Below are positions 1-18,311 of a DNA stretch of 64,000 nucleotides, piece after piece. The notes under the pieces were generated by a model. The model was not told where the DNA came from. It saw only the letters and a list, made by a program, of their open reading frames with translations, and searched no databases. The translations under genes were made by a program, and so were the position numbers. Within the stretch, counting starts at the first letter, position 1. Each line of letters opens with the position of its first letter. This stretch comes from a virus (taxonomy: Duplodnaviria; Caudoviricetes), in IMG/VR virus record IMGVR_UViG_3300027740_000003, positions 224,001 through 288,000 of that record; one strand, 5' to 3'.

Positions 1-349
1 CCGAATAAACACAATCAGTTGTTATATGAATCAGTTTTGATCCATTGTTTTCACACCAGTTAGCTAAATCCCACGGAAACACGGCATTTAGATATCTTGC
101 AGCTCTTGGGTTGGTTGACATAAATGGTTTAATTGTTCCGATACAATTAATTACATAATCATAAATTCCAACTTCACCTCCAAGGCATAAAAAAGTGGGG
201 CCTTTTGCCGCATCAAACCAAATACGATTTGTACCAAACGCCACAGACTCATCTCTGTGGGTTAATGTAATATTATGTTTTGTTTGCAAGAAATGCTTGG
301 ATACAGCATTTCCTAACATTCCAGTGCTTCCTAAAATTAGTATTTTCAT
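1..349 (-). CDS. rmlD: RmlD-family SDR reductase (dTDP-4-dehydrorhamnose reductase-like), 3' end runs off the window
   Basis: Not in the ORF track. Manual translation from ATG at 349 (ATGA overlap with the upstream stop) gives MKILILGSTGMLGNAV...YDYVINCIGTIK...LNAVFPWDLANWC...KLIHITTDCVYSG, i.e. the GxxGxLG and HI(S/T)TDCV(F/Y)xG motifs of the RmlD family. Confidence 0.85.
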   Translation of the reverse strand, partial: MKILILGSTGMLGNAVSKHFLQTKHNITLTHRDESVAFGTNRIWFDAAKGPTFLCLGGEVGIYDYVINCIGTIKPFMSTNPRAARYLNAVFPWDLANWCENNGSKLIHITTDCVYS

Positions 350-801
350 CGGTAGTCTTCCTTCCAAACGTTTAATGTTTCGTAATCAAATCTATAATCA
401 TCTCCTTTGCTTTCCTCTAATGTTGAGGTAGAATAAAATGTAATTATCGTACCTTGTTCCAAAGATTTAAACCCATTGGCGTATCCACTTGGAATAAACA
501 AAACCTTGGGACTAGTATCTGATAATACAAATTTATTTACTTCGTTAGATAAACGATAGCCACTAGGAAACACTTCATCTTCTATTAATTTTGCAATGAC
601 AATCAAAGCAGATCCTTTGCCTACATAAACATATTTGCTCTCGCACAAATGTCCATGAAAAGCGCGGACATAATTAACCTGATGATCTTTCACATGATAA
701 ACACGTCTGACACCACACATATAAGGATCAAAATCATTTATGAATCTAATTGTTCCTCTATCGTCAGTAAAAAGGTTGCCTTGAATTATTTTAGGGTCCA
801 T
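346..801 (-). CDS. Cupin sugar epimerase/isomerase (RmlC / WxcM-FdtA-like)
   Basis: DDRG near the N-terminus, RVYHV...VRAFHGH cupin motif, LFIPSGYANGF; sits among NDP-sugar genes. Confidence 0.8.
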   Translation of the reverse strand: MDPKIIQGNLFTDDRGTIRFINDFDPYMCGVRRVYHVKDHQVNYVRAFHGHLCESKYVYVGKGSALIVIAKLIEDEVFPSGYRLSNEVNKFVLSDTSPKVLFIPSGYANGFKSLEQGTIITFYSTSTLEESKGDDYRFDYETLNVWKEDYR

Positions 802-803
802 TT

Positions 804-1748
804 TTAGAATTTTCCTTTGCCTAGCTTTGAAAGAAATGCAGCATTTGAATATACAGGATCATTCATATCCACTACTCTATTTTGCTCGAAGACTTCTTTC
901 AATTCTAATATTCCGTCCTCAATAGTATAAAGTGGTTTCCAACCAGTGTTGAGAATTTTAGAATTATCAACCCTATAATTTCTTAAATCTTCAAAACTCA
1001 TATTTTTAAATTCAACCTCTGTCCCTGGAATAATAGATTGTATCTTGGTGGCAATTTCATGAATTCTCATGTTGCTTTCAGATAGATTATATAATCCAGT
1101 TATGTTGTTTTTAAATCCATAAAGAAAAGCGTTGGCAACATCTTTTACATGAAGCAAAGGACGCCACTGGTCCCCACCAAAAACAGATAGCTTTTCCCCG
1201 GCCACAGCTTTCTTTGTAAGAACATTTACCACCAGGTCAAGCCTGAGCCTAGAGTAAGTATCAGAAAGCCCGTAGAGGGTTCCTAAACGGAACACAAGTG
1301 AGTTCTTGTGATTGGCCAGGATATATTGCTCAGCTAGTAGTTTTGTTGAAGCATATGCAGAAAGAGGATTAGGAGCCGCTGTTTCATCTATAAGATCGTT
1401 GTTAACACCATAACAGCTACAAGTGCTAGGGAAATTTATACCGCCACTGTAATTATCCACCAACCATTTAACTGCCTCAAAATTAATTTCATTAGTTAAC
1501 TCAACATTAACTTGGCAAGCACCGTCCCCAACAATTCCCGCCAACCAAATAACAGAATCATATTCTTTTAATACTTTGGAAAGCTTATCTCTATCCCGAA
1601 CGTCCCCATAAATATATTTAACCTCTTTAAGAAACCTAGTTTCATAAAGCAAATTATCATAAATAGCAACATCATAACCATTTTTAATAAACAGATCGGT
1701 TAGATAGCCTCCAACATAACCGGCACCACCTACAATCAATACTTTCAT
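804..1748 (-). CDS. NAD-dependent epimerase/dehydratase (extended SDR)
   Basis: GGAGYVGG Rossmann motif, catalytic YASTK (YxxxK), WRPLLHVKDVA. Confidence 0.9.
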   Translation of the reverse strand: MKVLIVGGAGYVGGYLTDLFIKNGYDVAIYDNLLYETRFLKEVKYIYGDVRDRDKLSKVLKEYDSVIWLAGIVGDGACQVNVELTNEINFEAVKWLVDNYSGGINFPSTCSCYGVNNDLIDETAAPNPLSAYASTKLLAEQYILANHKNSLVFRLGTLYGLSDTYSRLRLDLVVNVLTKKAVAGEKLSVFGGDQWRPLLHVKDVANAFLYGFKNNITGLYNLSESNMRIHEIATKIQSIIPGTEVEFKNMSFEDLRNYRVDNSKILNTGWKPLYTIEDGILELKEVFEQNRVVDMNDPVYSNAAFLSKLGKGKF

Positions 1749-2831
1749 TTAATACCTCTTAAGTTGATTACTTAGCAAAAAATTAATAACTTTATCGGAA
1801 ACATTATCTTCTTTATATCCAATTGGGAATTTCCAATCTTTAGATGACGACAATGCTCTATCAAAACAATTTAATATATCACTTGTTTCCAATCCTGAAA
1901 CAATATTACTTCCACATTCTACAGTTTCTGGTCTTTCTGTGGAATCTCTAATGGTGACGGCTGGAGTATGAAATAAACAGCATTCTTCTTGGACCGTTCC
2001 AGAATCTGACACAACACACTTGGCCCAAGATTCCAATTTGATAAAATCAAAAAACCTCATTGGTTCCAACACAATAATTCTATCGTCAAATGTAAAATCG
2101 AATTTTCTTAATTTATTTCTAGTTCTAGGATGACAAGACACCACTACAGTAAACTTTTTTGATATTTGTTCCAAAGCTGTTTTTATATTAAATAGTCTTT
2201 TTGAATCATCTACATTTTCTTCTCTATGAGCCGTCACCAAAACGATATCTTTGCCTTGTATCCCTAGGTTTTTTATAATACTTGATTTAGACCATTTGTC
2301 TTGGTAAAAAGTAATCACCTCATTAATAGGATTCCCTGTTTCAAAAATACAATGTTTTTGTATGCCGTCTCGTAAAAGATTTTCTCTACTACCTGGAGTA
2401 TATGGAAGATTAAACGAAGAGGCTTGATCGATAATACGTCTATTAACTTCTTCTGGAACCTTCATGTCAAAGCATCTATTGCCAGCTTCCATATGGTATA
2501 CTGGATACCCAAGTCTTTCTACAATAATTGCACAAAGAGAAGTGTTAGTATCTCCAAGAATTAAGACTTTGTCTGGTTTATATTTATTTAAAGCAGATTC
2601 AATACCAATAAATATTTTAGCAAGTTGTTGACCTACTGTGTCTGATTTTGAATCAATAAAGAAATCAGGTTGGCGTAGCTGTAAATCTTCAAAGAAAACA
2701 CCATTAAGATTATTATCATAGTTCTGTCCTGTATGAATAACAATATGTTCGCAACATTTATCTAGTTTTGGAATTATTCTAGATAAACGAATTATTTCAG
2801 GACGAGTTCCAAGTATTGTTAATATTTTCAT
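1749..2831 (-). CDS. wecB: UDP-N-acetylhexosamine 2-epimerase (non-hydrolysing), Cap5G/WbjD/FnlC-like subfamily
   Basis: GTRPEIIR, HTGQNYD, LGDTNT, HMEAGNRCFD..VPEE.NR, SDSGTVQEE, RDSTERPE. Confidence 0.92.
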   Translation of the reverse strand: MKILTILGTRPEIIRLSRIIPKLDKCCEHIVIHTGQNYDNNLNGVFFEDLQLRQPDFFIDSKSDTVGQQLAKIFIGIESALNKYKPDKVLILGDTNTSLCAIIVERLGYPVYHMEAGNRCFDMKVPEEVNRRIIDQASSFNLPYTPGSRENLLRDGIQKHCIFETGNPINEVITFYQDKWSKSSIIKNLGIQGKDIVLVTAHREENVDDSKRLFNIKTALEQISKKFTVVVSCHPRTRNKLRKFDFTFDDRIIVLEPMRFFDFIKLESWAKCVVSDSGTVQEECCLFHTPAVTIRDSTERPETVECGSNIVSGLETSDILNCFDRALSSSKDWKFPIGYKEDNVSDKVINFLLSNQLKRY

Positions 2832-3422
2832 TTATTTGCTAGCCTTACAAAATTCCAATTAAATTGATAATCAGAATTCCTCCATTTAATTGAAGGGATG
2901 TCATTTTTTATTATTTTTTTATTTGTACATAAAACAATTTTTTTCCATACGTTCTTTTGAATAAAAGAATTGTTCTCCGTTATTAAAATCATCAACCATA
3001 ACTTTTGTTAAAATACAATCATAATCTATTGTTGAAAATTGAAAAGAAGCAATTCCGATATCTGTTAAATTAATATCATTAAATAATCTTGTTATTTCAT
3101 CCACATGATTATGCTGAAGTACCAAATTGCATAAAACCAAATCTACCGGTTCAATTTCTTTTAATTGATATGACATATATGTTTTAGAAGCCCCTTGTTC
3201 TTTAGCTTCTTCTAATAGAATTTTTGACACATCAACAGCATACACAGTATTGCTTTTACATAGATTTTTTACCTCATCGCTTCTACCCACCCCTAAAACA
3301 ATTATTTTTTTATCAGTTGGAAAGTCTAGCTGATGAAAAGATAATGTTTCTAATAATGATTGAGAGCTTATATATCTATTATTTTTGCCAGCATACTCAT
3401 TCCATTTTTCGTAAATATCCAT
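2828..3422 (-). CDS. Class I SAM-dependent methyltransferase, apparently frameshifted near the 3' end
   Basis: IIVLGVGRS (motif I), VYAVDVS (motif II), VDLVLCNLVLQH. The annotated frame stops at 2919; removing one A from the A7 run (T7 at 2938-2944) extends it to a TGA overlapping the next ATG at 2828-2831. Confidence 0.7.
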
Positions 3423-3431
3423 TATATCTCC

Positions 3432-3869
3432 TTATGCTCTTTTTCTCATAATAAGTCTTAACATATCACAATGTGGAACTGAGCTTCTGCTTTCACTTTC
3501 CAATGTAAAAGCTATTTTTGGACCAAAATAATAATCATCTTTTCCTCCACGAAAAATAATTTCAAATGATACCTTTTCTAAAAATGATTTATGATCTATT
3601 TCGTATGTTATACCAACTGGAAACAACAGATCTAGCATTCCATTGTTGGAAAGTTTATTATAACATTCAGATAAAAATTGTATAATTTCATCTTTAGTAA
3701 GGTGTTCTATAAAATGCCAAGCCCTAATTTCATCTAATTTATCGAAAGGCAGTCCATTTCTTACATCTAAAACCAAATCAGGTTCCCAAATTGGGTTTTT
3801 ATCTATATTAACAAACCCATCATATTTATAGGGGCCACAACCAACATTTATTTTTTTAACATTACTCAT
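3432..3869 (-). CDS. Small SAM-dependent methyltransferase (Methyltransf_11-like, glycan-cluster type)
   Basis: INVGCG, FVNIDK...PDLVLDV..GLPF, HFIEHL. Confidence 0.8.
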   Translation of the reverse strand: MSNVKKINVGCGPYKYDGFVNIDKNPIWEPDLVLDVRNGLPFDKLDEIRAWHFIEHLTKDEIIQFLSECYNKLSNNGMLDLLFPVGITYEIDHKSFLEKVSFEIIFRGGKDDYYFGPKIAFTLESESRSSVPHCDMLRLIMRKRA

Positions 3870-4614
3870 CCATTTCTCCTTCCTTAAAATGATAAACCAA
3901 ACTATCTAATGCAGTAATATGAGAAACCCCAATCTCTTCTAATTTCTTTCCCGTATAAACATCACCATAATCTATAACTTCTTCAAATGTGTTTCCAGCA
4001 AGATTTCCTTCAGGATACATTCCTACTTTTAACATAATGTCTTTATAAATTGCACAAGGCATATAAGCCCCACCTCCCTTTATTTGATTTAAAAGAATAT
4101 TAGATTTTGCAAATTCTTCAAACCCGGCTTTATTAAATGAAGCAGGAGATGCTCCGAAATTTTTAACGATGCAGCCCGGAAAAGCTATTCCGTGGCGGGG
4201 ATGAATTCTTTCTACCAACTGTGAACATACAAATTTGGTTTTATCTAAATGTTTTAGTAAATTTTCTAACCAATTATCTGAGAACATCATATCAGAATTT
4301 ACCAAAACAACAATTTCTCCCTGTGATAACTCTATTGCTTTGTTCCATGCACAATAAACGCCATGTAAATAATTAGGCCAACCTATCCCCATAGCAAATA
4401 ATTCTTCATTTGTTTTTTTTTCATTTGTATGAATGTAATGTTTATAATTTTTCTCTTTAAGATGATTTAAAACTTTATCAGTGGCATCGTTTGCTATAAA
4501 GAAGAATTCCGTATCATTATTCTGTAATAATGGAGTGTGTTCATACAAAGAATTATAAACCGCATCAGCAAAAACGGTTGATTTATATATTAATGATGCT
4601 ATTGAAATTTTCAT
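3862..4614 (-). CDS. GT2-family (GT-A) glycosyltransferase
   Basis: MKISIASL start (ATG 4614, ATGA overlap), WNKAIELSQGEIVVLVNSDMMF, late VYH motif. Confidence 0.75.
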   Translation of the reverse strand: MKISIASLIYKSTVFADAVYNSLYEHTPLLQNNDTEFFFIANDATDKVLNHLKEKNYKHYIHTNEKKTNEELFAMGIGWPNYLHGVYCAWNKAIELSQGEIVVLVNSDMMFSDNWLENLLKHLDKTKFVCSQLVERIHPRHGIAFPGCIVKNFGASPASFNKAGFEEFAKSNILLNQIKGGGAYMPCAIYKDIMLKVGMYPEGNLAGNTFEEVIDYGDVYTGKKLEEIGVSHITALDSLVYHFKEGEMDE

Positions 4615-5435
4615 TGTATACCTATATATCTCTTCCAAAGATTTATTGAAGACTTTCTGTCCCAGTTTAGTTTAAATATATCGTCTCGTGTATTCAATGA
4701 TGGAACAAAATCTTTTTTAATTCCATCTAATATAACCATCGGCAAATTACAAGCCATAGCTTCCCATTCAACCATAAAAAATGGTCTAAGTAGTCCACAA
4801 GATAAAAAGAAATCTGAACAAGCTAATAATTCAGATAGTTGCAACTGAGATACATGAGTAAAATTAGAAGCTCCATCTAAATGTCCAGCCTCTTCTTGTT
4901 GTTTCCAAACCACAATCCAATATATATCAGGATTATCATTTTTATATTGTAATAATTTATTATATCCTTTCATTGGGTGCGTTGTTCCACACCAAATCCC
5001 AATTTTTTTATCAACTGGCAAATTGTATTTTGTTTTTATTTCTAATTTATTATCAATTGGTTTGAACAAATCAGTATCTACGCCTATTGGCAAAACATCA
5101 ATTGTACCAAAGTCTTTATAAAATTCTATCATTATGCTACTAGCTACAGTTCTTTTAATTGATTTTCTAGCACTATCTGCAATGATATTTATAATAGGAT
5201 CTATGGCAGGATCTCCTAAAGCGCGTTTCATTTCAGGATGAAGTTCCCATAATAACGATATTGTATTGTTTGGGAATTTATTTGCTCCCAAAGTAGAATA
5301 TTGCAAAATAATATCATTTGATTTAATACTAGCAGGCAATCCAAAAGATGAAACGTCTCCCATTTCCCTTTTCATCCATGTCCAAAAAGTATCTTCTCCT
5401 AATCCCGAAATCACTTGAGCATTTAAATATAACAT
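4611..5435 (-). CDS. GT4-like (GT-B) glycosyltransferase
   Basis: LPIGVDTDLFKP, HPMKGY, LSELLACSDFFL, EWEAMACNLPMV. Probable start ATG 5435 (TAATG overlap). Confidence 0.75.
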   Translation of the reverse strand: MLYLNAQVISGLGEDTFWTWMKREMGDVSSFGLPASIKSNDIILQYSTLGANKFPNNTISLLWELHPEMKRALGDPAIDPIINIIADSARKSIKRTVASSIMIEFYKDFGTIDVLPIGVDTDLFKPIDNKLEIKTKYNLPVDKKIGIWCGTTHPMKGYNKLLQYKNDNPDIYWIVVWKQQEEAGHLDGASNFTHVSQLQLSELLACSDFFLSCGLLRPFFMVEWEAMACNLPMVILDGIKKDFVPSLNTRDDIFKLNWDRKSSINLWKRYIGIQ

Positions 5436-6187
5436 TATATTAATTCTCCCCAATTTTTATCAACATTTCTTTTTATAATGCTTTTTCTAGACATAAATAA
5501 TTTTTCATTATATTTATATCTTTCAGCATTATTACCTTCTAAAGTTAATCTTGGATGATACAAATGAACAACTTTGCAATTTACTTTAAAGTGTTTATTA
5601 CCAACGCTACACATTCTCTCTACAATATCATTATCATCATATCCTGTTCCAATAAAATCCTCATCATATCCACCTATATCTACAAAATCTTTCCTATTCA
5701 TTCCCATAAAAAAAGGCAAATGCATATTATATAATGTTTGCAAGGAATTATAATCAGTAGATATTAGCTCTCTACCAGTACGTAATATTCGTAAAAACCT
5801 TCCTATTTCATCATCTTTAATATCAGGTATAGTTAATAGTTTTTTATTAACATTTAATATGTTCAACATGTCCTGTACAGTATTATCCAAATGATACATT
5901 TCAGCACATGAAATAAATATAAAATCACTATCTGTTCTCTTTACCCCATAATTTACAGCGTATCCTGGAATTCTCCATTGTGTAGAATTTTTACCAGTAT
6001 GAAAATATTTTATATTTAATTTATTTTCATAAGACATACATATATTTTCAGTATCATCATTTCCCCCATCATTTAAAACCACTACCTCTATTTCAGATTG
6101 TGAAAAAGATTGTTTGGCCAATGAGGCCAATCCATAATTTAATAGTTCGGATCTGTTAAAAGATGTAATTAATATTGTTGCTTTCAT
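5435..6187 (-). CDS. GT2 / GT7-C glycosyltransferase
   Basis: TILITSFNR, EVVVLNDGG, IGGYDEDFIGTGYDDNDI, VVHLYH. The DxD position reads CAE. Confidence 0.85.
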   Translation of the reverse strand: MKATILITSFNRSELLNYGLASLAKQSFSQSEIEVVVLNDGGNDDTENICMSYENKLNIKYFHTGKNSTQWRIPGYAVNYGVKRTDSDFIFISCAEMYHLDNTVQDMLNILNVNKKLLTIPDIKDDEIGRFLRILRTGRELISTDYNSLQTLYNMHLPFFMGMNRKDFVDIGGYDEDFIGTGYDDNDIVERMCSVGNKHFKVNCKVVHLYHPRLTLEGNNAERYKYNEKLFMSRKSIIKRNVDKNWGELI

Positions 6188-6792
6188 TAGTATTGTTTCC
6201 CCAGAACCGCATCATAATAATAAATAACCTTATCAATCCGCACTTGATGTTTTATTTTTGGCCAAGCTTGTTTTACCCAAGCAAAATCCTCACCAGTATT
6301 GGTTTGTGGAAAAATACAAGTTTTTGCAATTCTTGATGCCCAAACCATATTGTGAGACGGTTTTCCATACCACAATTCTGGAATTTCATTTTTAACACTG
6401 CAATTTTCTATTGTCCATGGTGCCAATTTGGTATAATCATATTCTATGCCAAATTTGGAATGTATTTTTCTACAGCCACTAATTACACAAATCATATCAT
6501 AAACAATACAATCAGCATTAGGATTGCAATCTATAGCATTTAATATCTCAAATAGAAAGTCCTCGGAAATCCTATCATCATCATCTACAAATACAATAAA
6601 ACTTCCGGAGGCCATATTTAATAATATATTTCTTTTTTCACCTATTGTTTTTTTATAATTGTCTAACAAACCCAAAACCTCAACATCGTTCCTGTTATTT
6701 TTTATAATTTGATTATTTATATTTTCTATCATATTAGTAAAAAACCGCTCGCATCTTTTTGTTGTAGTTGGAACTAATATACTAAGTTTCAT
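6187..6792 (-). CDS. GT2-family glycosyltransferase
   Basis: LSILVPT, IGEKRNILL..ASGSFIVFVDDDDRI, GEDFAW. Confidence 0.85.
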   Translation of the reverse strand: MKLSILVPTTTKRCERFFTNMIENINNQIIKNNRNDVEVLGLLDNYKKTIGEKRNILLNMASGSFIVFVDDDDRISEDFLFEILNAIDCNPNADCIVYDMICVISGCRKIHSKFGIEYDYTKLAPWTIENCSVKNEIPELWYGKPSHNMVWASRIAKTCIFPQTNTGEDFAWVKQAWPKIKHQVRIDKVIYYYDAVLGKQY

Positions 6793-9566
6793 TTTGCACC
6801 AATATATTTTACTACCTTTCCAATAAAGGTAGTTTTATCTCCGTTTAATGTTGTTATTGTATTTTCTAAATTTGCTGTTTTTGGATGCCCTCCATACCAA
6901 TGAAATCCAATAGCATTATAATAATCCTCTACATTTAAATTATAATTAAGAAAGAAATCAATATTCTGTATCGAATATACGGTCTGTACATTTATATGTA
7001 ATGCATTTTCATTTCTTGTAAACAATTTATTTCCCATACTTTGATAATCTTTTGCTTTAAATTTTTTTATTGCTAAGTTTGATATTTTTTTATAAAAATC
7101 ATTATTTTGACTAGACATCAAAAATCCTATGGCATAAATTCCATCATCATAACAACAAACGCCAGTATGTGTTTTATTATTTAAATCATTATTATCAATC
7201 ATATAATTTATAGGTTGAACATAAAGAATATCCATATCTGACCAAACGCCACCTTCCCCTGATAATAAAATCCATCTCAAAAAATCAGACTTATGTACTT
7301 CATGGGCAGTATTGGAAAATCCATATTTATCAAAATTATGTTTAACAAATTCTACATTTAAATCATGTATTAAATCAAAACAATTACTAACATTATTTTG
7401 AATTGATTTAGATATTTTTTGTTCAAGCGTTTTCCAAGTAGGAACAATTGTTCCTAAAACTTCAGGAATATGTAATTTTATTTTCCAATCCGGATTTTGT
7501 TTTCTAAAAGAATATATACTTAAATATCTTAAAAAAGATAATTTTTCTCCTCCCCAGTAAAAATGGGCTACTTTAGGTATATTTTCAAACTTCCATTCAT
7601 TAGACCTATTTATAATAGCAACATTTCCCCAGCCTTTATTATTTCTAACTATAATATTCTCTCTTTCTTTATATAGTTTTCTATTATAATCTACTCTTTG
7701 TTGAACATATTGATTTTCTATTTTAAGAGTTTTTCCATTTATTAATAATCTTTCATGATATAAATGTATTATTCTGTCATTCGTGTAATGATATTTACAG
7801 CCATATTTTTTTAATCTTTCAGACAAATCGTTATCATCTGCAACAAGTCCAATAAAATCTTCATCATATCCACCAATATCAATAAAATATTGTCTATTTA
7901 AACCTAGAAAATATGGCAGCTGCATTGTTGCTGGATCATTCTCCATTATTTTTTCTTTATTAAAATCATTTTCAATATTTATAGATCCATCTTTCAATTT
8001 ATTTAGAAAGTTTCCAGAACCTTCTTTTCCAACACATGTGGTTATAATTTTCTCATTATTATTTTCTAAAACATTTAACATCGAAGATATAGTATTATCT
8101 AAATGATATATTTCTGCACATGAAATAAATATAAATTTTCCTTTAGCTATTTTGACACCAATGTTTATAGCATATCCGGGAATTCTCGAAACAATACTAT
8201 TTAAATTTCTCTGACCAGTAAAAATATATTTTATATCCAAATCAGTAAATTCTGAACATATTCTCTCAGTATCATCAGGAAGATAATCATTGATAACTAT
8301 TATTTCTACATCGTTTTTATTAAAATCCTGTTTTGCAATTGAAGACAATCCAAACTTTAACAATTCCGATCTGTTGTAGGTACTAATTAAAATTGATGCT
8401 TTTTTACATTCCGTATTGTTATTTACAAACAATGGCACAACAACTTTCCAAGGCAAATTAATATCGAAATTTTGTGTGGTTATAGGTTGTAATGTGTTTT
8501 CATGTATATTATAATTAGAACTACTTGTTTTTACTATTTTTATATTATTTATTACCAAACTTCCAGTAGACATCTTTGCCGGCCGATAAACATTTAATAT
8601 ATACGTCTCCCCATATCCTTTATTTCCAGAATATATATCAACATTTATATTATTATTTCCTACTATGTTTTGATATACTACGCCTACATTATTTAATAAT
8701 TGTACTCCTAACCTTCCATTTCCATTAATAACTCTAGATGAAAGAGAAATATTATATGTTGTGTTTGGTTCTAATAATGCCAACGGGATAGAAAACTTTC
8801 CCATACTAGACATCACTATTCCCCCGGATACTTTATTACACTTTTCTAACGAAGAAGCTAAAGTATCAACGGAAGCATCAATGATTATATTACTCATAGT
8901 TCTCTCTTCATTAACTAACTCACAGACCGTATGTTTTTGTATTGCTTGTTCTTCTTTAACAGCTTGTATCTTTGATGCAACAACAATATCATTTGGAACA
9001 TGATTCTCTATAACAGCGCTGGTGTTCATCGTAATATCAAAAATTCTACATTGATAAATAAATACTATCTTTCCATTCTTCCTAATCCACCCATTAGGAG
9101 GATCTGTCTGCAAATCTAAAATGTCAGCTTCATTATCTATCTCTGCTGCCTCTGAAGCAAATACACCAAAATCTGTTTTGTTTATCCCCGAAGACTTTCC
9201 AATTTTACGCAAAAATAAATCCATATCGTTAGATATAAACGTGGGAATCTCAACAGGCTCACTCACAATAATATCTTCAACAAATAATTTAGAAACAAGA
9301 ATATGTCCCGTTGCTCCACGAGGCCTAGAAATAACTACATCACTGGCCGTCTTTATTAGTGTTGGTTTTGTAGGATTTAATACATGAGTCGCCCCGTTTA
9401 CAATAATGTTTACATCAGATCCTCGGACTCGAAAAAATTCAACAAATCCTTCACGGGGCAATAAAAACCTTACAGAGCTTCTTTCTCCATTTAATCGTAA
9501 ACTGGCACCAACTTTACAACAATATTGCTGAGAAATTATCACACTGTGTAGGTCTAACTGCTTCAC
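6789..9566 (-). CDS. Multidomain glycosyltransferase: N-terminal beta-sandwich-like repeats + GT2/GT7-C + GT32 (DxD) domain
   Basis: GTG start. Central ASILISTYNR...IGGYDEDF...HLYH; C-terminal IPKVAHFYW...SDFLRWILLSGEGGVWSDMDI (GT32 consensus SDxxRxxxLxxxGGxYxDxD). Confidence 0.85.
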   Translation of the reverse strand: MKQLDLHSVIISQQYCCKVGASLRLNGERSSVRFLLPREGFVEFFRVRGSDVNIIVNGATHVLNPTKPTLIKTASDVVISRPRGATGHILVSKLFVEDIIVSEPVEIPTFISNDMDLFLRKIGKSSGINKTDFGVFASEAAEIDNEADILDLQTDPPNGWIRKNGKIVFIYQCRIFDITMNTSAVIENHVPNDIVVASKIQAVKEEQAIQKHTVCELVNEERTMSNIIIDASVDTLASSLEKCNKVSGGIVMSSMGKFSIPLALLEPNTTYNISLSSRVINGNGRLGVQLLNNVGVVYQNIVGNNNINVDIYSGNKGYGETYILNVYRPAKMSTGSLVINNIKIVKTSSSNYNIHENTLQPITTQNFDINLPWKVVVPLFVNNNTECKKASILISTYNRSELLKFGLSSIAKQDFNKNDVEIIVINDYLPDDTERICSEFTDLDIKYIFTGQRNLNSIVSRIPGYAINIGVKIAKGKFIFISCAEIYHLDNTISSMLNVLENNNEKIITTCVGKEGSGNFLNKLKDGSINIENDFNKEKIMENDPATMQLPYFLGLNRQYFIDIGGYDEDFIGLVADDNDLSERLKKYGCKYHYTNDRIIHLYHERLLINGKTLKIENQYVQQRVDYNRKLYKERENIIVRNNKGWGNVAIINRSNEWKFENIPKVAHFYWGGEKLSFLRYLSIYSFRKQNPDWKIKLHIPEVLGTIVPTWKTLEQKISKSIQNNVSNCFDLIHDLNVEFVKHNFDKYGFSNTAHEVHKSDFLRWILLSGEGGVWSDMDILYVQPINYMIDNNDLNNKTHTGVCCYDDGIYAIGFLMSSQNNDFYKKISNLAIKKFKAKDYQSMGNKLFTRNENALHINVQTVYSIQNIDFFLNYNLNVEDYYNAIGFHWYGGHPKTANLENTITTLNGDKTTFIGKVVKYIGAK

Positions 9567-10315
9567 TAGTCTTCCTTATATGATACATATATTGGCAACT
9601 TGCCCTGTGAATATAATGCACAATTATTCCGGAACTCACTAACTTTACTATCATGCTCAAATGTTTTAAATTTCCTATACTCCCCCGTGTCATATTCTCC
9701 TACTCCCAGATGAATTCCCGGCTCTTTCAGATATCCTAGTTTAAATCCAAAAAACCTAGCTCTCATACCATAGTCGCTATCTTCTAAACCATAAAATCCA
9801 GTGTTTTTACCAGGAACATTATATTGTTTAAAAAATCCAAGAGCTTTATGCAACGGTTTCCCAAACACCATACAAGCAGTACCCAAATTCCCCTGAGGCT
9901 TATTCTGAAACTCATGCCCTCCCAGCTTAACCAAAGGATATGTTGTTGCCTCAAAATTGACTCCTACGGCACCGTAAACAGGATTGGCCTTGAGTATCCC
10001 AAGGCACTCTCCAAGCCATCCTGAAGGCACCTCGACATCATTATCAATGGTACAATACCAATCCGCCCCCATCTGGTCAGCTGCCCATAATGCTTGGTTC
10101 CTTCCTTTGCAAATACCTAGATTATCTGAATTTAATATCAACCTACCCTTCCCAACCAAATAATCATTTAGGAATTCCACAGTCCCATCTGTAGAACAAT
10201 TATCAACAACAACTAGCTCATAATCCAAATCTGTATTTTTTTCTAATGAAGCTAATGTTAATTTTGTAAGCTCCAGCCTGTTATAAGTTATCATCATTAG
10301 AACTATTTTTTCCAT
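9566..10315 (-). CDS. GT2-family glycosyltransferase
   Basis: ITYNRLELT, VVVDNCSTDGT, NLGICKGRNQAL, TIDNDVEV, YGLEDSDY. Confidence 0.9.
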   Translation of the reverse strand: MEKIVLMMITYNRLELTKLTLASLEKNTDLDYELVVVDNCSTDGTVEFLNDYLVGKGRLILNSDNLGICKGRNQALWAADQMGADWYCTIDNDVEVPSGWLGECLGILKANPVYGAVGVNFEATTYPLVKLGGHEFQNKPQGNLGTACMVFGKPLHKALGFFKQYNVPGKNTGFYGLEDSDYGMRARFFGFKLGYLKEPGIHLGVGEYDTGEYRKFKTFEHDSKVSEFRNNCALYSQGKLPIYVSYKED

Positions 10316-11274
10316 TTTAATACCTCAAACATCTCCAACGGAGTCAAGTTTTTACTGGTTATTATTTTCTTGTTTGGATTTATAAATTTCTTATTTCTTA
10401 TCAAACAGCATTCATTATAAAGTTTTAATGCACATGGCGTTGTGTTCCCAATAAACAACCCCGCCAAAACAAAATCTGGTTCCTTTGATAAAACAAAACT
10501 CGACTCTTTAATCAGATAAACAATATTCTCTACGTCCAACGAAATAGTTAATGCCCCCGTTCCATAATACTTTTGTGGATTAGGTGAGGCTATTATTAAA
10601 TTATAATTTGTTTTAGTTAACATTGCGGCAAATGATCTAACTTCGTTTATCCCCCATGTAAGACTTAAACTGTTATGATCAGACCATCCCGTTATATCAG
10701 GGAATAATAATACAAACCTTTTTTTCAAATCAAACCTAGATGTATTTGCTATCTTTAGTAATTTCTCAGGCAACTCTATCCTTCTTAATTGTGGAATATA
10801 TTTTTCATTCCATGTTATCATTAAATTATTAAATAATTGTTTTAATAATGGCTTGTCATTTCTATATTTAAATTCCCCCCAATAAGTATAAACATCAATA
10901 TAATTATTTAAACAATTCATAATTGCTGCCGTTTTGTTCTTATTAAAAAATACAGGAACAGTATATTGGTGAAGAACAGATGCTGAAATACGTTTGGTTG
11001 GTTTGGCCAAACCCTGAATATCATTAAGTTTTTTAAATAATGAGTTGCCACACCATTCCATTGGATAACGTGAATATATTGTATTCAACGCTTCAAAATA
11101 AGATAATGAAAATAAATTTTCAATAAACCCTCCGTTAAGACAAAGCACGCCGGTTTTATCACGAAATAAATGGTTCCACCTATCAGAGTTCATTTCTGGA
11201 ATAATGAATTTATGATTCCCTAACGTATAAGGAACTCCTTCAGCAAAAGGAAATATCTTAGTGCTTTGGTACAT
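10303..11274 (-). CDS. Divergent GT-B protein, GT9 (heptosyltransferase)-like
   Basis: GGFIENLFSLSYFEAL, FVLLFP...W...FAAML and LDVENIVYLIKESSFVL resemble GT9 segments, but the DSG-H motif is degenerate. Confidence 0.45.
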   Translation of the reverse strand: MYQSTKIFPFAEGVPYTLGNHKFIIPEMNSDRWNHLFRDKTGVLCLNGGFIENLFSLSYFEALNTIYSRYPMEWCGNSLFKKLNDIQGLAKPTKRISASVLHQYTVPVFFNKNKTAAIMNCLNNYIDVYTYWGEFKYRNDKPLLKQLFNNLMITWNEKYIPQLRRIELPEKLLKIANTSRFDLKKRFVLLFPDITGWSDHNSLSLTWGINEVRSFAAMLTKTNYNLIIASPNPQKYYGTGALTISLDVENIVYLIKESSFVLSKEPDFVLAGLFIGNTTPCALKLYNECCLIRNKKFINPNKKIITSKNLTPLEMFEVLKWKK

Positions 11275-12097
11275 ACAACATGTAGTTTGGATTGTTTTGA
11301 TATATTTCTAAATCCATCTGGAATGTTTTTCCCCACTTATCTTTAAATAGTTTTACATTGCTCTGAACAAATAACTTATTTACAGGGTTTAACTTTAATG
11401 AAGAACTTTCGTTATGATAAAATAACGTATCTCCGCAATAAACAATTTTCTTTCCCATATTATATTTAATTGACAAATTCATATCAATGTCATCAAATGA
11501 CCATATAAATGATTCACACATTCCGGATATTCCAGATTTGTTTGCTGTACATACTTGTTTAAAATATTTAGATTTAGTTAAACAAACGGCAGCAGTACAA
11601 GCCTGAAATTCTCTATTAACATTATCTTGTTTATTTACTTTGTCTCCGCGGCGATAATGAAAAGGCATAAAATTATACTTAGCAGATCCTATTACCCCAA
11701 CATGAGTTATCGTATCTCCATCCGGATATAATATCTTTCCTCCAACTAATCCTACCCAAGAATCCTTTTCCATAATATTTATCATATTCTTTAATGATTT
11801 GTCGTCTATAACCCACAGATCATTATTAAGCAATAAAATATAATCATCATCGGCCGGTCTTGCTAAATCAAAAAGAATATTCATTCCTTCTGCAAAATTA
11901 TGTCTGTTATGTCCAGTATAATATGGAACAATATTGTTTGATTTAATAGATTCTAGAAACTCTTTCGAACCATCATTGCTACCATTGTCTTTTATATACC
12001 AACAATAATCTAATCCTTTTAATGCTGGAAGCAAAGATACATATAATCTTTCCAACAAAGGTTTGGCATTCCAGTGAAGAGTAAATATCTTAATCAT
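11258..12097 (-). CDS. GT2-family glycosyltransferase
   Basis: IKDNGSNDGS, NFAEGMN, LLLNNDLW, FDDIDMNL. Probable start ATG 12097 (ATGA overlap). Confidence 0.9.
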   Translation of the reverse strand: MIKIFTLHWNAKPLLERLYVSLLPALKGLDYCWYIKDNGSNDGSKEFLESIKSNNIVPYYTGHNRHNFAEGMNILFDLARPADDDYILLLNNDLWVIDDKSLKNMINIMEKDSWVGLVGGKILYPDGDTITHVGVIGSAKYNFMPFHYRRGDKVNKQDNVNREFQACTAAVCLTKSKYFKQVCTANKSGISGMCESFIWSFDDIDMNLSIKYNMGKKIVYCGDTLFYHNESSSLKLNPVNKLFVQSNVKLFKDKWGKTFQMDLEIYQNNPNYMLYVPKH

Positions 12098-12834
12098 CTC
12101 TTGGTCCACTTTGTTATAAATGTTCTTTTAGATTCTAAATACATATTAGACAAACCTAGCTTTTTAGATGTCATCTTCCCAAAATGAACAACCGGAACAG
12201 GAATAATTTTAAATGGTATTCTTAGTTCTGTAGCACGAAATGACAAATCAACGTCTTCATAATACGAAAAAAATTCCTGTGAAAACGGACCTTTAACAGT
12301 ATTCTCTGTAGGTATAAGTTTATCAAATACTTCTTTTCTAGCGCAAAGGCACCAACCAGACATATAGAAATTGCCGGACTCCATTGTGGTTGTTTCCCTA
12401 ATGAAGTTAAAATGTTCATCCAACAATCCTCCATTAGGCCCAACAATGCTTCCATCAGCAGCTGCATCAATAAGTTTCTGAGTCCATGTAGAATGGTCTT
12501 TCTGTACCCTTATATCGTTATTTAAAAAGAGAACGTATTCTCCTCGGGCTATCTGGTACCCTCGGTTAGAAGCTTCCCCAAACCCCCTATTATCTTTATT
12601 AATAATAGCTATGAGGTTCCTAGGACGATCTAATCCCGTCGGATGATCCGGATGAACACAATCTACCATAATAAATGGATTGGCCCAAAGATGGCAGCTG
12701 TCTTTGGTTCTATCTGTGCTTCCGTTATCTATCAAAATAACCTCATGATCCTCTGGCAACTTGGCAAGATCTTTCAGAGCAGATTTGGTAAAGTTCCAAT
12801 TATTGTGAACGGGTATTATTATACTTAGTTTCAT
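12094..12834 (-). CDS. GT2-family glycosyltransferase
   Basis: LSIIIPVHN, LIDNGSTD, GFGEASNRG, LFLNNDI, YYEDVDLS. Confidence 0.92.
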   Translation of the reverse strand: MKLSIIIPVHNNWNFTKSALKDLAKLPEDHEVILIDNGSTDRTKDSCHLWANPFIMVDCVHPDHPTGLDRPRNLIAIINKDNRGFGEASNRGYQIARGEYVLFLNNDIRVQKDHSTWTQKLIDAAADGSIVGPNGGLLDEHFNFIRETTTMESGNFYMSGWCLCARKEVFDKLIPTENTVKGPFSQEFFSYYEDVDLSFRATELRIPFKIIPVPVVHFGKMTSKKLGLSNMYLESKRTFITKWTKR

Positions 12835-14035
12835 TTATTTTTCTCATTTCTTTATTATTTTTTCTAGTTTCAATCATTTTTTTATAAGCACAAATAGGAC
12901 AAAAATGTCCTTTTTTTATTGAAGACGGAACTGCGAACCACCTATGCCCAATTTCACATTCCCATTCTAATTTTTGACGACATCCCAAATAAACAGAAGA
13001 AATACATTTTCCACCTTTTTCTTCAGCTGACTTTTTATATTCTTCGAATTTGTTATAATAAATATTGTGCATATACGCCTGCGACAAATCTATTTCTTTA
13101 TTTTCAACATTATACCCAAATTCTCTACATTTATTTATAATAAAATCTTTTAATCTAGGAAAACTTAATTTATTAAATAAGGTTGGAATGACTACAAGAT
13201 TGATTCCTTCTAATTTACACTGTTCTAGTTTTAATTTATCATTTCTTTGAACCTCTTCTAATCTATTATTTGATTTGCCAAATGAATTATTTTCATAATG
13301 ATGAGCTCCCTGATGTTCAAAAGCTAAATTTAATTCTTCACAATATCCGTCCAATTCAAGTTTAAAACCTTTGTCAGAACGCAAACAACCCAACCTAATA
13401 GTTTTAAATTCTTTATTAAAAAGTTGTTCAAAATGAGTCCTGCATACTTCTTCACTTAAATTATTATTTCTAGAACATTTTTGACACCAATGTCCTAAAC
13501 TTACAACATCAAAATATTTAATATAAAAAATATGTCCAAAATTACACATCATTTTTATTTTTGACAAACTTGTGTCATATTTTTTAGACAAACATTTTCC
13601 ACCATATTTTTCGACAATTTTTACCAAAACATCATAGTGTTTTTTATTATAACACTCTCGGCATTTGATCAAATCTCTACTTTGTGAATTAAAACTTTTA
13701 TTAAATTCACATCCACATTTTAAACATTTCCAATTTAATTTCTTTTTATTATAAATGTATTCTTTTGATACACAAATTACACCTGTGTCTTTTAATTGTT
13801 CATTTATATTTTCTATAGATCTTTTTTTATTAGTACAATAATTTTTTGAACAATATTGACATTTTATCAAAGATTTATTTTGACAATCTAAAGTTCTTTC
13901 AAATTCATTATTACATTTGAAACATTTCCATTTAAGCACTTGTCTATTATATTCATAATGATCTGATATACATATTACATCAAAATTTTTAAATTTTTCA
14001 TTTATGTTTTTAATTGTTAATTTATTTTTATACAT
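12800..14035 (-). CDS. Free-standing zinc-ribbon + PD-(D/E)xK endonuclease (homing-endonuclease-like)
   Basis: Four CxxC/CxxxH...CxxC zinc-ribbon repeats; SEEVCR...LELDGY...LAFEHQGAHHY nuclease core; visibly more AT-rich than its neighbours; overlaps both flanking genes. Confidence 0.8.
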   Translation of the reverse strand: MYKNKLTIKNINEKFKNFDVICISDHYEYNRQVLKWKCFKCNNEFERTLDCQNKSLIKCQYCSKNYCTNKKRSIENINEQLKDTGVICVSKEYIYNKKKLNWKCLKCGCEFNKSFNSQSRDLIKCRECYNKKHYDVLVKIVEKYGGKCLSKKYDTSLSKIKMMCNFGHIFYIKYFDVVSLGHWCQKCSRNNNLSEEVCRTHFEQLFNKEFKTIRLGCLRSDKGFKLELDGYCEELNLAFEHQGAHHYENNSFGKSNNRLEEVQRNDKLKLEQCKLEGINLVVIPTLFNKLSFPRLKDFIINKCREFGYNVENKEIDLSQAYMHNIYYNKFEEYKKSAEEKGGKCISSVYLGCRQKLEWECEIGHRWFAVPSSIKKGHFCPICAYKKMIETRKNNKEMRKINETKYNNTRSQ

Positions 14036-15233
14036 TTGTTAAACTTGTAATCTGTTGTGCCACATTATCCCAACTCATTATTTTTAACTGTTCTTTAATC
14101 ACTGGTCGGAACCTGTTCATTATGTCATCATAATTGCTAACTGCATATCTGAGTTTAGCAACTGCATCATCTATGTCCGGCTCAAACATCTCTGCAAATG
14201 GAGAATTTGTCCAGTATTGCATTTCTTTTGGAGCACGAATCATTTTGCCATCAATTAAAATAGAGTTGTTATTATTTAGGAAGTCTAGCTGCCCCCCATA
14301 GTTGGAATTAATTACCAAAATATTTGTGGCTAACGCTTGGGCCGAAGGCAGATGGAACCCTTCAGCATGAGTCATCGCAAATAAAATATTACAAGCATTA
14401 TATAGCGGAGTCATTGTGTCTAAGAATTCTGGAATAATTTCAACTTCAGCATGTTTTGGATACTTTTTATAAAAATCTTCTACAATTCTCCAAAAATCAA
14501 TATTAAATGGCATTGCTTTTTCTTTGGTCTGCTCTGGAGAATTCCTTTGATTCAGCTTCTTTGCAGCCCTAAGATTTCTAACCTGTTTCTGAACAATTGC
14601 TTTTGGTGAAGGTTTAACACTTATTTTGCACACCAAACAAACATCATCTTCTTTTGTGAACGCTTTTCCAAACGCTTCAAATAATCCTGGTATATTCTTT
14701 CTTATATGTGGTTGAGCTATATCTGATAATATTTTATATTTCTTTTTAGTCTTTAATTGATAAACCTTTTTGGAAGAATACTCTTCTACATTTATTCCAT
14801 GAGGCACAACTATAAGTTTTTCTTCTGGAATACCACTATTAGCAAATATTCTTTTTGAAAACTCTGAAGAAGGAAGCATCTTATCACAAAATTTATGAAG
14901 TTTAGCAAACCCTTCAGGAATAATCGTGGTTTCATAATTCCATATTCCAAATCTATTTTTATTTCCATTATTAAGATAACGTGGAAAGTTTGTCATTGCC
15001 GTATAAGATAATTGCATATCATAATTTTTATCTATATATTTCCACGGAGTCGAATCCTCTTGCTCTTTCCATTCTCGCAAATATGGTTTTAAATCTTCTG
15101 GAAAATATTTAATTCCATTTGTTGAAAACAAATGAACGTCATGATTTTGTTTTATTAATGCCCTGGCAATATTCGTGCCAACGATTTGCCAGCTGTGATT
15201 TTGAGCTAGGAACTGTTGAATTTTAATTTTCAT
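14028..15233 (-). CDS. GT4-family (GT-B) glycosyltransferase
   Basis: VVPHGIN, PHIRKNIPGL.EAF, EGFHLPSAQALA, NYGGQLDFL, FEPDIDD. Confidence 0.9.
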   Translation of the reverse strand: MKIKIQQFLAQNHSWQIVGTNIARALIKQNHDVHLFSTNGIKYFPEDLKPYLREWKEQEDSTPWKYIDKNYDMQLSYTAMTNFPRYLNNGNKNRFGIWNYETTIIPEGFAKLHKFCDKMLPSSEFSKRIFANSGIPEEKLIVVPHGINVEEYSSKKVYQLKTKKKYKILSDIAQPHIRKNIPGLFEAFGKAFTKEDDVCLVCKISVKPSPKAIVQKQVRNLRAAKKLNQRNSPEQTKEKAMPFNIDFWRIVEDFYKKYPKHAEVEIIPEFLDTMTPLYNACNILFAMTHAEGFHLPSAQALATNILVINSNYGGQLDFLNNNNSILIDGKMIRAPKEMQYWTNSPFAEMFEPDIDDAVAKLRYAVSNYDDIMNRFRPVIKEQLKIMSWDNVAQQITSLTNV

Positions 15234-15244
15234 AACTTGCCTTC

Positions 15245-15275
15245 AATAAAAGAAAGGCTAGGACAAGCCTAGCCT
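15245..15275 (-). terminator. Rho-independent terminator between the virion genes and the glycosylation cluster
   Basis: Minus strand AGGCTAGG-cttgt-CCTAGCCT (perfect 8-bp stem, 15255-15275) followed by TTCTTTT. Confidence 0.75.
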
Positions 15276-15299
15276 CGAATATTTCTTTCTTTTCTTTAA

Positions 15300-18200: not shown

Positions 18201-18311
18201 AGAAAAGTTCCCATTTGTATTATCTTGTTCTACGTTCATATCAGACAGATCCACTTTCTGGCCATCTGCCCAATTATTTTGTAATGATGATACTGGTATT
18301 CTTGTTGTCAT
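15300..18311 (-). CDS. Baseplate-peripheral / fibre-type virion protein with a dockerin-like double EF-hand module
   Basis: N-terminal WADGQKV..SDMNVEQ resembles fibre/baseplate attachment N-termini; dockerin-like repeat pair; follows the wedge genes; 8 DGY motifs. Confidence 0.6.
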   Translation of the reverse strand: MTTRIPVSSLQNNWADGQKVDLSDMNVEQDNTNGNFSAIVQNMFGSGVLLENPIPTVLFDTDNLSAVQAQLQAANNLDGTGLSPATQPSDTLLGNQLSIEYADSSIAQTTKPSLAKAFGRYNVKVLIIGLDFEGNLQYDRFEFHKKETQTTFRHYTNILTILLSGFDGNNNCSACWGGRIIIREALPLELNRDAMVVGQDIEPNIFIRDIRPADCHLSIWNVIQNGIGSAYDADDLEINITSRQPQRAILPNDVTTQIGQKFLASTNNIQKITLLMSVSGDYTADIEDRFNWNGDLIVSVYRLQTTTACPTDILPELAIDFDPEERPLTELSFSQSELRDAGYVLTDVPQPVDFVFTNSVIAAAGGVENGKYYAFTVRRSGSADLGTIYMEVGTDTLDNSRLTVFNAIWVDSLEEDMWFQVWSNSAKFASGQAYDRGNGIAIEKTEIDETTGATIDNYNRFYNFVSNGEGINNIGVIEAAIEKSITTQDERTGNNVYSRKQYVPSFSFATSATLTTLRQTSEPLTIGCMADINPKTRETITKTQTYPGLANDNSFIIINPDGDLLANRLVGRKIVPDNTAAYEYRIYKETLCNDGYGDVNGDGYITSADVARAAQLIGCDITSAATQQDILDGYFTTLEILRADVDGDGIVSAIDVDLIQRYVNREDGYRYFPVGSYFTHLELEVQPAVARSDGYWVCYQTENPITLTCDGYIKSDGPIYTCPTTVDPSSLSDIEKTYYGNITSSTIDDDNSGVYQVAPFVSVDYDIIYVPFWADWMLSLNAEARAVPCAFTYPTSIDAADCTQSAQFDCTERSNEIPDCDPGRNDFYVPGNLIIGSGSLIRPDGTPLPVDIEVGIINLELGTQIFSETSFDIFGDFVSDRGDGMTNANYPAMRYADCTTVQPEDLAGNKVRFNVSIQSFIPSLDGYDLVDGYGIIIDDIVGTYMDHSTGFLRLTIRDLDENPLFATMVSKIQVVIYLKKAGWKNQVLTITPSEMAGLGTTYP
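16315..16535 (-). other. Dockerin type I-like domain
   Basis: GDVNGDGYITSADVARAAQLIG and RADVDGDGIVSAIDVDLIQRYV, two DxxxDGxxxxxD Ca-binding loop-helix repeats. Confidence 0.75.

Follow-up and report, generated by a model that had tools for sequence, protein, structure and literature searches.

In this study we analysed a 64,000-nucleotide stretch of DNA (hereafter the window), corresponding to bases 224001-288000 of the 435,004-bp virus record IMGVR_UViG_3300027740_000003, which derives from a soil metagenome and represents an uncultured phage. At window positions 1-15233, and for ~3 kb to the left of the window, this DNA carries one dense minus-strand block of ~20 soluble sugar-making and sugar-transferring genes. 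Our favoured, albeit tentative, explanation is that the block encodes a membrane-independent glycan assembly line, which decorates the outer virion proteins of the phage itself late in infection; among these, the acidic fibre-like proteins whose genes lie immediately upstream are the most probable targets. A virion target is suggested by the clade-wide tie of the cluster to a fibre-like gene, the combination of a fixed core with a variable periphery, a GT-B type glycosyltransferase (GT) family found in phages only, the lack of membrane and DNA routes in the genome, and the precedents provided by other viruses.

The phage genome (completeness rating 100%; 35% G+C) has ~90% of its large open reading frames (ORFs) on the minus strand. 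Upstream of the cluster, i.e. to its right in the window and earlier in transcription, lies a contractile-tail module with sheath and baseplate wedge subunits. At the fibre end of this module a lectin-type fibre gene is followed by a gene for an acidic dockerin-like protein and then by the glycosylation cluster, which begins 66 bp past the latter gene, so that the GT genes are set in the tail-fibre region. The features of this junction are the following (aa, amino acids; pI, isoelectric point):

18315..25007, minus strand: fibre protein of 2230 aa with a ConA-like lectin domain (Pfam Laminin_G_3); the adjoining upstream gene encodes a baseplate wedge subunit (phrog_6).
15300..18311, minus strand: acidic fibre-like protein of 1003 aa with a dockerin-like calcium-loop domain (Pfam Dockerin_1 9e-10; pI 4.2), the candidate acceptor of the glycan.
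15254..15276, minus strand: terminator-like hairpin, a 9-bp stem followed by a T-run, within the 66 bp that separate the fibre-like gene from the first GT gene (consensus scan and sequence reading).

The block contains 10 GT genes with 11 GT domains (7 GT2, 2 GT4-type, 1 GT32 and 1 GT-B without a sequence-family match), accompanied by two small methyltransferase genes, wecB, a 4-oxidase/3,5-epimerase/4-reductase trio and one zinc-finger gene. A genome-wide Pfam Glycos_transf_2 search placed 7/7 of the GT2 domain matches of the 435-kb genome within 8.6 kb of cluster sequence, and their grouping is therefore not a matter of chance. Listed from the fibre side, the GT genes are:

14028..15233, minus strand: core GT4 (401 aa), invariably the first of the GTs that follow the fibre-like gene (Pfam Glyco_transf_4; synteny).
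12094..12834, minus strand: core GT2 (246 aa), conserved clade-wide (Pfam 1.7e-18; synteny).
11258..12109, minus strand: core GT2 (283 aa), conserved clade-wide (Pfam 6.7e-10) and present in both the “expanded” and the “minimal” architecture described below.
10303..11274, minus strand: GT9-like GT-B protein of 323 aa (AlphaFold2 and Foldseek fold match; no sequence-family match).
9566..10315, minus strand: GT2 (249 aa), conserved in the “expanded” sub-clade (Pfam 2.7e-20; 40-66% identity in relatives).
6789..9566, minus strand: three-part enzyme of 925 aa, with a beta-rich N-terminal part of 390 aa, a GT2 + 7C part (391-604) and a GT32 part (704-841) (Pfam).
6187..6792, minus strand: small GT2 (201 aa; Pfam Glycos_transf_2 25.2 bits, cut-off 23.3; 62-69% identity in the relatives L004 and L005).
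5435..6187, minus strand: GT2 with a GT7-C-like tail (250 aa; Pfam Glycos_transf_2 3.5e-15 and Glyco_transf_7C 1.2e-7), paralogous to the central domain of the 925-aa enzyme.
4611..5453, minus strand: short GT-B protein of GT4 type (280 aa; weak Glycos_transf_1 match, E 0.0017), in which the EWEAMACNLPMV motif (EAMAC-LP) is visible.
3862..4638, minus strand: GT2 (258 aa; Pfam Glycos_transf_2 32 bits).

The family assignments and coordinates which the original prediction, made from the sequence letters, had given for the GT, methyltransferase and nucleoside diphosphate (NDP)-sugar genes were borne out by Pfam and NCBIfam, the second methyltransferase by a language-model lead only. The same prediction described a single coupled block beside the tail genes. 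Neighbouring genes do overlap or abut; however, the block is broken by one 87-bp gap (the single exception) and by the insertion of a mobile DUF4379 gene, and the hairpin lies between it and the fibre-like gene.

Comparison with related phages supports a link with the virion. Profile searches of IMG/VR recovered 20 loci for the 323-aa family and 53 for the fibre-like protein, the longest contigs reaching 459 kb. Among ~70 related huge-phage contigs, the order fibre-like protein, GT4, GT2 (246 aa), GT2 (283 aa) is retained in almost all that have enough downstream sequence, and a fibre of the 2230-aa type precedes the fibre-like protein. Inserts of 0-6 kb (homing endonucleases, an Ig-like protein) may follow the fibre-like gene, and in one phage the insert is at least 9.5 kb long. 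The exceptions are L078 (30% identity), where 9.8 kb of sequence contain no GT, and L055 (31%), with a GT4-like gene alone.

Two architectures can be distinguished. In the “minimal” one, GT4, GT2, a ~340-aa protein, GT2 and an intact RmlB gene are followed by tubZ; the “expanded” one, to which the phage studied here belongs, adds the GT-B protein, the 249-aa GT2, a large multidomain GT and lineage-specific sugar enzymes. We considered whether the ~340-aa protein is a diverged copy of the 323-aa GT-B protein, and this was ruled out (hhalign probability 0.3). Identity among the core GTs is 40-58% in relatives whose fibre-like protein shows 31-60%, and the distal part of the cluster varies between lineages. 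Fixed inner genes combined with a variable outer part are what one would expect if the glycan were attached through a constant region and differed at its exterior. The occurrence of GT clusters beside fibre genes is a general pattern already present in the literature. Judging from the sequences compared, this case is distinguished by a near-invariant core of three GTs, linked to a single fibre-like protein throughout a large huge-phage clade, by the phage-restricted GT9-like family, and by sugar-pathway turnover, in which a dehydratase is decaying.

The 323-aa protein, which had originally been described as GT9-like, has no Pfam (including Glyco_transf_9), NCBIfam or PDB sequence match, but its AlphaFold2 model (54 relatives in the alignment; pLDDT 96.6) adopts a GT-B fold. 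In a Foldseek search the nearest structures were the GT9 enzymes WaaF/WaaC (E 3e-8 to 1e-5, TM-score ~0.5), and at the level of fold the earlier description thus holds. GT9 heptosyltransferases include the protein-modifying TibC/Aah branch. The identity to WaaC/WaaF is, however, only 8-10%, and we consider that the 323-aa protein is best treated, on the basis of its modelled fold, as a member of a separate, uncatalogued GT-B family whose nearest fold is that of the GT9 heptosyltransferases.

This family comprises 168 representative clusters of equal length, and its distant members are again flanked by genes of WecB, SDRs (short-chain dehydrogenases/reductases), GT2 and GT4 enzymes. A pattern scan of 185,579 species genomes gave a single match, JAAUSR010000131.1, assigned to a “Thioploca sp.” bin. 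This contig (6.8 kb, 2x coverage, 30% G+C) has the order GT2, GT2, GT-B, GT2, large GT, with 29-52% identity, and since the phage gene order is kept, it is likely to be a mis-binned fragment of a huge phage. In the relatives examined and in the scanned species genomes the family was therefore met in phage contexts only, which argues that the module is not a recent capture of host envelope genes.

Further support comes from what the genome lacks. As originally predicted, no transmembrane segments were found in any cluster protein (no 19-residue window reaches a Kyte-Doolittle value of 1.6). A hydropathy scan of all ORFs of the genome revealed one polytopic protein (at least 4 transmembrane segments), the permease of a BPD_transp_1 ABC importer (genome 33239-34024), which is probably an auxiliary nutrient-uptake gene. 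This being the sole such ORF, neither a GtrA flippase/GtrB/polytopic serotype GT set of the kind used in O-antigen conversion nor a 6-transmembrane-segment (Wzm/Wzt-type) exporter is present in the scanned genome. Profile searches of the complete genome, in which the positive controls worked, gave no match to Bac_transf, Wzx or Wzy/ligase, nor to the ThyA-family hydroxymethylases (PF00303, covering both dCMP and dUMP types) or the C5 DNA methylases (PF00145). TET/JBP (PF12851) likewise had no match in the genome, although the control of that search was silent too. The absence of a flippase, Wzy, ligase and initiating transferase, first noted for the window, thus extends to the whole genome, and the genes read to the left of the window include no flippase, membrane GT, other membrane protein or base-modifying enzyme, which favours the original interpretation. 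It follows from these negatives that the phage has no lipid-carrier initiation, flipping, export, ligation or hydroxymethyl-pyrimidine DNA machinery of its own.

Alternatively, the cluster might remodel the host envelope. The soluble GTs would then act at the inner face of the host membrane on lipid A-core, on undecaprenyl pyrophosphate-linked O-antigen or capsule, or on teichoic-acid intermediates, and host WecA-type initiation, MsbA/Wzx/ABC export and ligase would deliver the glycan, blocking superinfection or the sticking of progeny to debris. We regard this as less likely, but as a serious alternative, and several observations speak for it. GT2, GT4, GT9-like, GT32, WecB and RmlC/D-type enzymes are classic parts of envelope-polysaccharide systems, and the nearest solved relatives of the cluster proteins are TarS/TarP, PglI, WaaC/WaaF and a capsular heptose enzyme. 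The adjacency of GT and fibre genes would also be explained, as both concern the receptor, and modification of core-lipid A requires no new flippase. However, the phage would have to borrow every membrane step, since its complete genome encodes neither an initiating transferase nor a flippase, exporter or ligase, and the borrowed steps would have to accept a foreign glycan. Moreover, the inner GTs belong to the core gene set of a deep phage clade and are conserved like structural proteins, not hypervariable, the GT9-like family occurs in phage contexts only, and the phage appears to be lytic, so that ~18 kb of genes devoted to surface conversion would have no clear pay-off.

Two described systems may be compared here. 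The first is the pathway for methyl-capped O-polysaccharides or S-layer-type glycans dependent on ABC transporters: a multidomain GT and methyltransferases are present in the phage, but the phosphoglycosyl transferase and the exporter are absent (host supply is conceivable). In the phage, the 925-aa GT2 + GT32 enzyme and the methyltransferases would extend and cap the chain. The second is the host recognition cluster of pelagimyophages and cyanomyophages (PMC7029224), also large myophages, in which GT and deoxy-sugar genes lie in or near the tail-fibre region. That region is hypervariable and dominated by GT8 enzymes, and its authors read it as serving modification of the host O-chain (PMC7029224), which lends weight to envelope remodelling. 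In contrast, the inner GTs of the phage studied here form a conserved core with a variable distal part, none of the cluster proteins has a Pfam GT8 match, and the GT-B family is phage-only.

That the GTs add sugars to modified bases of the phage genome, which would then evade restriction, is in our opinion highly improbable. Phage GTs related to lipopolysaccharide (LPS) and teichoic-acid enzymes do add mono- to trisaccharides to 5-hydroxymethylcytosine, and their clusters can adjoin structural genes (bioRxiv 10.1101/2023.12.21.572611). However, neither a ThyA-family hydroxymethylase nor a C5 cytosine methylase is encoded by the complete genome, no TET/JBP candidate was found (with the silent control mentioned above), and neither the cluster nor its immediate surroundings contain DNA-modification genes. 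To our knowledge, ten GTs together with methyltransferases and a bifunctional extender exceed what any described DNA glycan involves.

Glycosylation of virion proteins, the explanation preferred here, has precedents. According to the summary in PMC12363180, mycobacteriophages attach glycans to the capsid and the tail tube with their own GTs, and virions of the jumbo phage XacN1 contain glycoproteins (PMC5852040). In the accounts of Che8, Corndog and Myrna (Freeman et al. 2023, as summarised in PMC12363180 and PMC12619734), soluble phage-encoded GTs, in some cases with a methyltransferase, act on structural proteins, as proposed here. The mycobacteriophage systems, as far as these summaries describe them, comprise 2-3 GTs without sugar-nucleotide enzymes and target the C-termini of capsid or tail-tube proteins, whereas the present phage has ~10 GTs and its own sugar pathway, tied to a fibre-like gene.

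The Megavirinae offer a parallel in scale, with clusters of 6-33 genes (dehydratase, reductase, 2-epimerase and giant multidomain GTs) which glycosylate the fibrils (PMC10117803). The clusters of Mimivirus, Megavirus and Moumouvirus (PMC10117803, PMC9614988) share with the one described here their membrane independence, the combination of sugar-nucleotide enzymes with several GTs, an SDR of ~320 aa, a 4-reductase of ~270 aa, a 2-epimerase of ~370 aa, very large multidomain GTs, lineage-specific content and the use of host NDP-sugar precursors. They differ in that they belong to eukaryotic giant viruses and that their fibril glycans have been shown chemically, whereas the phage studied here has a bacterial host and a tailed particle, and its fibre-like proteins are candidate acceptors. 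Furthermore, the SDR of the Megavirinae is a 4,6-dehydratase/5-epimerase of the CapE/Mg534 type, which is not among the solved relatives of the phage SDR.

The sugar-nucleotide enzymes and methyltransferases, which occupy the left part of the window, are:

2919..3422, minus strand: small class I S-adenosylmethionine-dependent methyltransferase (167 aa; Pfam Methyltransf_11 22.2 bits, barely past the cut-off).
3432..3869, minus strand: second small methyltransferase-like protein (145 aa; GCG motif), called from a language-model lead alone (0.96, to phage Methyltransf_11 clusters), with no significant Pfam match.
1749..2831, minus strand: WecB, non-hydrolysing UDP-GlcNAc 2-epimerase (Pfam Epimerase_2 8e-88; TIGR00236 251.5 bits against an equivalog cut-off of 210).
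804..1748, minus strand: SDR of 314 aa, putative NDP-sugar C4-oxidase/epimerase, not a 4,6-dehydratase (Pfam Epimerase 1e-30).
346..801, minus strand: RmlC-like cupin, putative NDP-4-keto-sugar 3,5-epimerase (151 aa; Pfam dTDP_sugar_isom 32.5 bits, cut-off 27).
1..367, minus strand, the gene continuing to genome 223534: N-terminal part of an RmlD-like NDP-sugar 4-reductase (277 aa; Pfam RmlD_sub_bind 36 bits and Epimerase).

The best solved relative of the SDR is 6vo6/6vo8 (E 1.7e-47), entitled “putative sugar-nucleotide epimerase/dehydratease”. We take 6vo6 to be, in all probability, Cj1427 of Campylobacter jejuni, a GDP-heptose C4-dehydrogenase. The SDR retains the YxxxK motif (YASTK), but has STCSCYG where dehydratases have STDEVYG, and hence no Asp-Glu pair; the trio therefore fits a route of oxidation, epimerisation and reduction. 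The cupin scores far under the rmlC equivalog cut-off and has a weak PDB match to 7pvi, and the best solved relative of the reductase is the dTDP-4-dehydrorhamnose reductase 2ggs (E 5.6e-10). The same enzyme logic is found in the capsular heptose trio of C. jejuni, namely Cj1427 (C4-dehydrogenase), Cj1430 (3,5-epimerase) and Cj1428 (4-reductase) (PMC10680097). The phage differs in having no GDP-heptose synthesis genes and no nucleotidyltransferase (the NTP_transferase profile search of the genome, with working positive controls, was negative), and in that its cupin and reductase are distant relatives of RmlC/RmlD. In the relative L004 (43-68% identical), the SDR homologue (L004:18714-20801) is 695 aa long and contains an intein (Pfam Intein_splicing).

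Since it has no nucleotidyltransferase, the phage depends on NDP-sugars made by the host, and these would be the starting material of the proposed pathway. WecB should produce UDP-ManNAc, and the SDR, cupin and reductase would invert sugar centres via a 4-keto intermediate. The conserved core GTs would then attach the glycan and build an inner linker on the protein, which the GT9-like GT-B protein, the further GT2/GT4 enzymes and the bifunctional GT2-GT32 enzyme would extend into a longer, lineage-specific chain. The methyltransferases would modify or cap this chain. The hairpin after the fibre-like gene would let only part of the late transcripts through, giving low levels of the enzymes and high levels of the structural proteins.

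The 925-aa enzyme is a candidate chain-extending bifunctional transferase. Its neighbours in the PDB are TarS/TarP, chondroitin synthase and Och1, and its N-terminal part gave weak CBM (carbohydrate-binding module)/Asp3-like leads alone (<0.85). Its full-length relatives show 43-75% identity. A single-protein search of viral contigs with this enzyme revealed no related loci, which were recovered by the profile searches described above.

Several observations weigh against a virion target. GT2, GT4 and GT9 enzymes which build LPS core, O-antigen, teichoic acid and capsule on lipid carriers are themselves soluble or peripheral, and the step from the absence of transmembrane segments to cytoplasmic protein glycosylation is therefore weak; the host could supply both initiation and export. 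The core GT4 (pI 9.1) and the 323-aa protein (pI 9.4) are basic, as are many membrane-peripheral GTs, which would also suit remodelling of the envelope. The pI was tried as a proxy for membrane association and proved not to be discriminating. The hairpin, which insulates the cluster at least partly from the fibre transcript, is likewise more readily reconciled with envelope remodelling, and because replication genes lie on the other side of the cluster, late co-expression with the fibre genes has to be regarded as an assumption. Finally, tblastn of the core GT4 and of one core GT2 detected no homology to the mycobacteriophage GTs (Che8 gp110/Corndog gp38). The original prediction, which had placed a cytoplasmically built glycan most plausibly on virion proteins, is thus strengthened by the genome-wide negatives and the clade-wide association with the fibre-like gene, but its argument from soluble enzymes is weak and the hairpin sets the cluster at least partly apart from the fibre transcript.

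In a tblastn search of 50,697 phage records, the core GT4 had as its only cultured-phage relatives GTs of Streptomyces and Microcystis phages (22-24% identity, in an uninformative context), and neither it nor the one core GT2 searched with it had a mycobacteriophage match. Among GenBank phages, the 323-aa protein and the fibre-like protein gave no tblastn match, no cultured phage there carrying either of them, and megablast of the cluster DNA gave no match. The core GT4 has 980 homologues, of which the best 120 are all at least 48% identical and lie on contigs of up to 460 kb; its family is thus large, and on contigs of huge phages it is tightly conserved.

The candidate acceptor, the 1003-aa fibre-like protein, was modelled by AlphaFold2 from 16 sequences with a mean pLDDT of 53.5; the model is confident at residues ~540-690 only, which form the dockerin-like part. 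The double calcium-loop segment within it (DGYGDVNGDGYI ... DVDGDGIV; residues ~590-665, window 17300-17530) is nearly invariant across the clade, and may dock the protein to another part of the virion or to a cohesin-like receptor of the host. Prediction of a complex of GT4 (401 aa) with fibre-like residues 560-1003 scored 0.00 and gave no interpretable model either way.

The tripeptide DGY is strongly over-represented in the phage genome (85 observed against 18.7 expected). It is concentrated in five fibre-like proteins, with 19, 8, 7, 7 and 5 copies, and the 1003-aa protein contains 8 copies against 0.3 expected. DGY could be a target motif of the glycan. Against this, many DGY motifs sit in conserved dockerin-type calcium loops, in YVDGY fibre repeats or at strand starts, and a structural role is as likely as a role as a sequon. 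DGY counts average 7.6 among the “expanded” relatives and 5.0 among the “minimal” ones, a difference confounded by phylogeny, all groups being GT-bearing. In its most specific form, the proposal would be that a conserved enzyme set, peculiar to phages, links a glycan to the DGY tyrosine of tail-fibre proteins throughout this clade of huge phages from soil and sediment, and that individual lineages then elaborate the glycan. The set would consist of the GT4 and both core GT2 enzymes, joined in one branch by the GT9-like GT-B protein. We consider this version a long shot. If true, it would add a new protein-glycosylation sequon and a new family of initiating enzymes in viruses of bacteria.

The glycan might also be built on some other cytoplasmic acceptor, such as non-virion phage or host proteins (e.g. 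for the disabling of host factors), a free or secreted oligosaccharide, or a small molecule. The enzymes are soluble, the fibre-like protein is a candidate acceptor only, and the cluster lies at the junction of the structural genes with the tubulin and replication genes, all of which would be compatible with such a role. However, a set of ten GTs with tailored sugars and methylation suggests a long glycan of defined structure and not a single inactivating sugar, and the strict clade-wide linkage to one fibre-like gene would be left unexplained. In our view an acceptor of this kind is improbable.

If the virion does carry the glycan, the glycosylation machinery of tailed bacterial phages would match that of giant viruses in scale, with consequences for host recognition by huge phages, for resistance to proteases and environmental decay, and for evasion of binding. 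Such phages would also supply glyco-engineering with soluble, carrier-independent GTs and with a new GT-B family. Should the cluster remodel the host envelope instead, it would represent a large, core-conserved system of superinfection exclusion in a lytic megaphage.

The cluster passes the left edge of the window, as had been foreseen, with ~3 kb containing the remainder of the RmlD-like gene, a gene for a 622-aa protein and an RmlB-like gene. The 622-aa protein gave chance-level leads alone and is not conserved in L005. The last gene of the cluster is:

Genome 220903-221682, left of the window, minus strand: decayed RmlB-like 4,6-dehydratase (259 aa, against 316-330 aa in relatives).

The segment that bears its catalytic motifs (TDE and YxxxK) has been lost from this gene. 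L005, the closest relative, has point mutations at the same residues (L005:14531-15481), while in the more distant “minimal” relatives RmlB is intact, with STDEVYG and YSASK. The branch in which the dehydratase decays is therefore the one that acquired WecB and the SDR/cupin/reductase trio, and the RmlB-like gene looks like a pseudo-enzyme left to decay after the sugar pathway was replaced. Beyond it lie two small ORFs, followed by tubZ/phuZ and genes for an UvsW-like helicase, DnaB, a sigma factor and ribonucleotide reductase. One ORF between the cluster and tubZ (136 aa, genome 219942-220352) ends ...DEAIIKDIIQ.

Hairpins with T-runs occur at the matching position in the relatives L004, L022, L051 and L066. 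Moreover, many relatives (L004, L011, L017, L022, L023, L033, L038) share a G/TTCGAG motif (window 15272-15279) which precedes the GT4 start codon by 35-45 nt and hints at a promoter. GTCGAG was considered as a shared promoter or marker of an expression class and was rejected as too weak, the motif being just 2.3-fold enriched in the intergenic DNA of this genome.

The G+C content of the cluster is 27-33%, compared with 33-41% in the adjoining structural genes. Bacterial O-antigen and capsule loci show the same kind of drop as that seen over window positions 1-14000. One gene of the block stands outside the pathway:

12800..14035, minus strand: basic zinc-finger protein of the DUF4379 type (411 aa, pI 9.2; Pfam DUF4379).

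This gene is missing from most relatives and occurs elsewhere in the module in L011-13, L018, L024, L034 and L057; because its position differs among relatives, we regard it as a mobile insertion. Another slot of the GT module is occupied by a GIY-YIG/NUMOD3 homing endonuclease (L054:19781-20674), and the module is a hot spot for mobile genes. In one “minimal” relative it also contains a gene for a DNA glycosylase of the Fpg/Nei type (L073:16200-17042).

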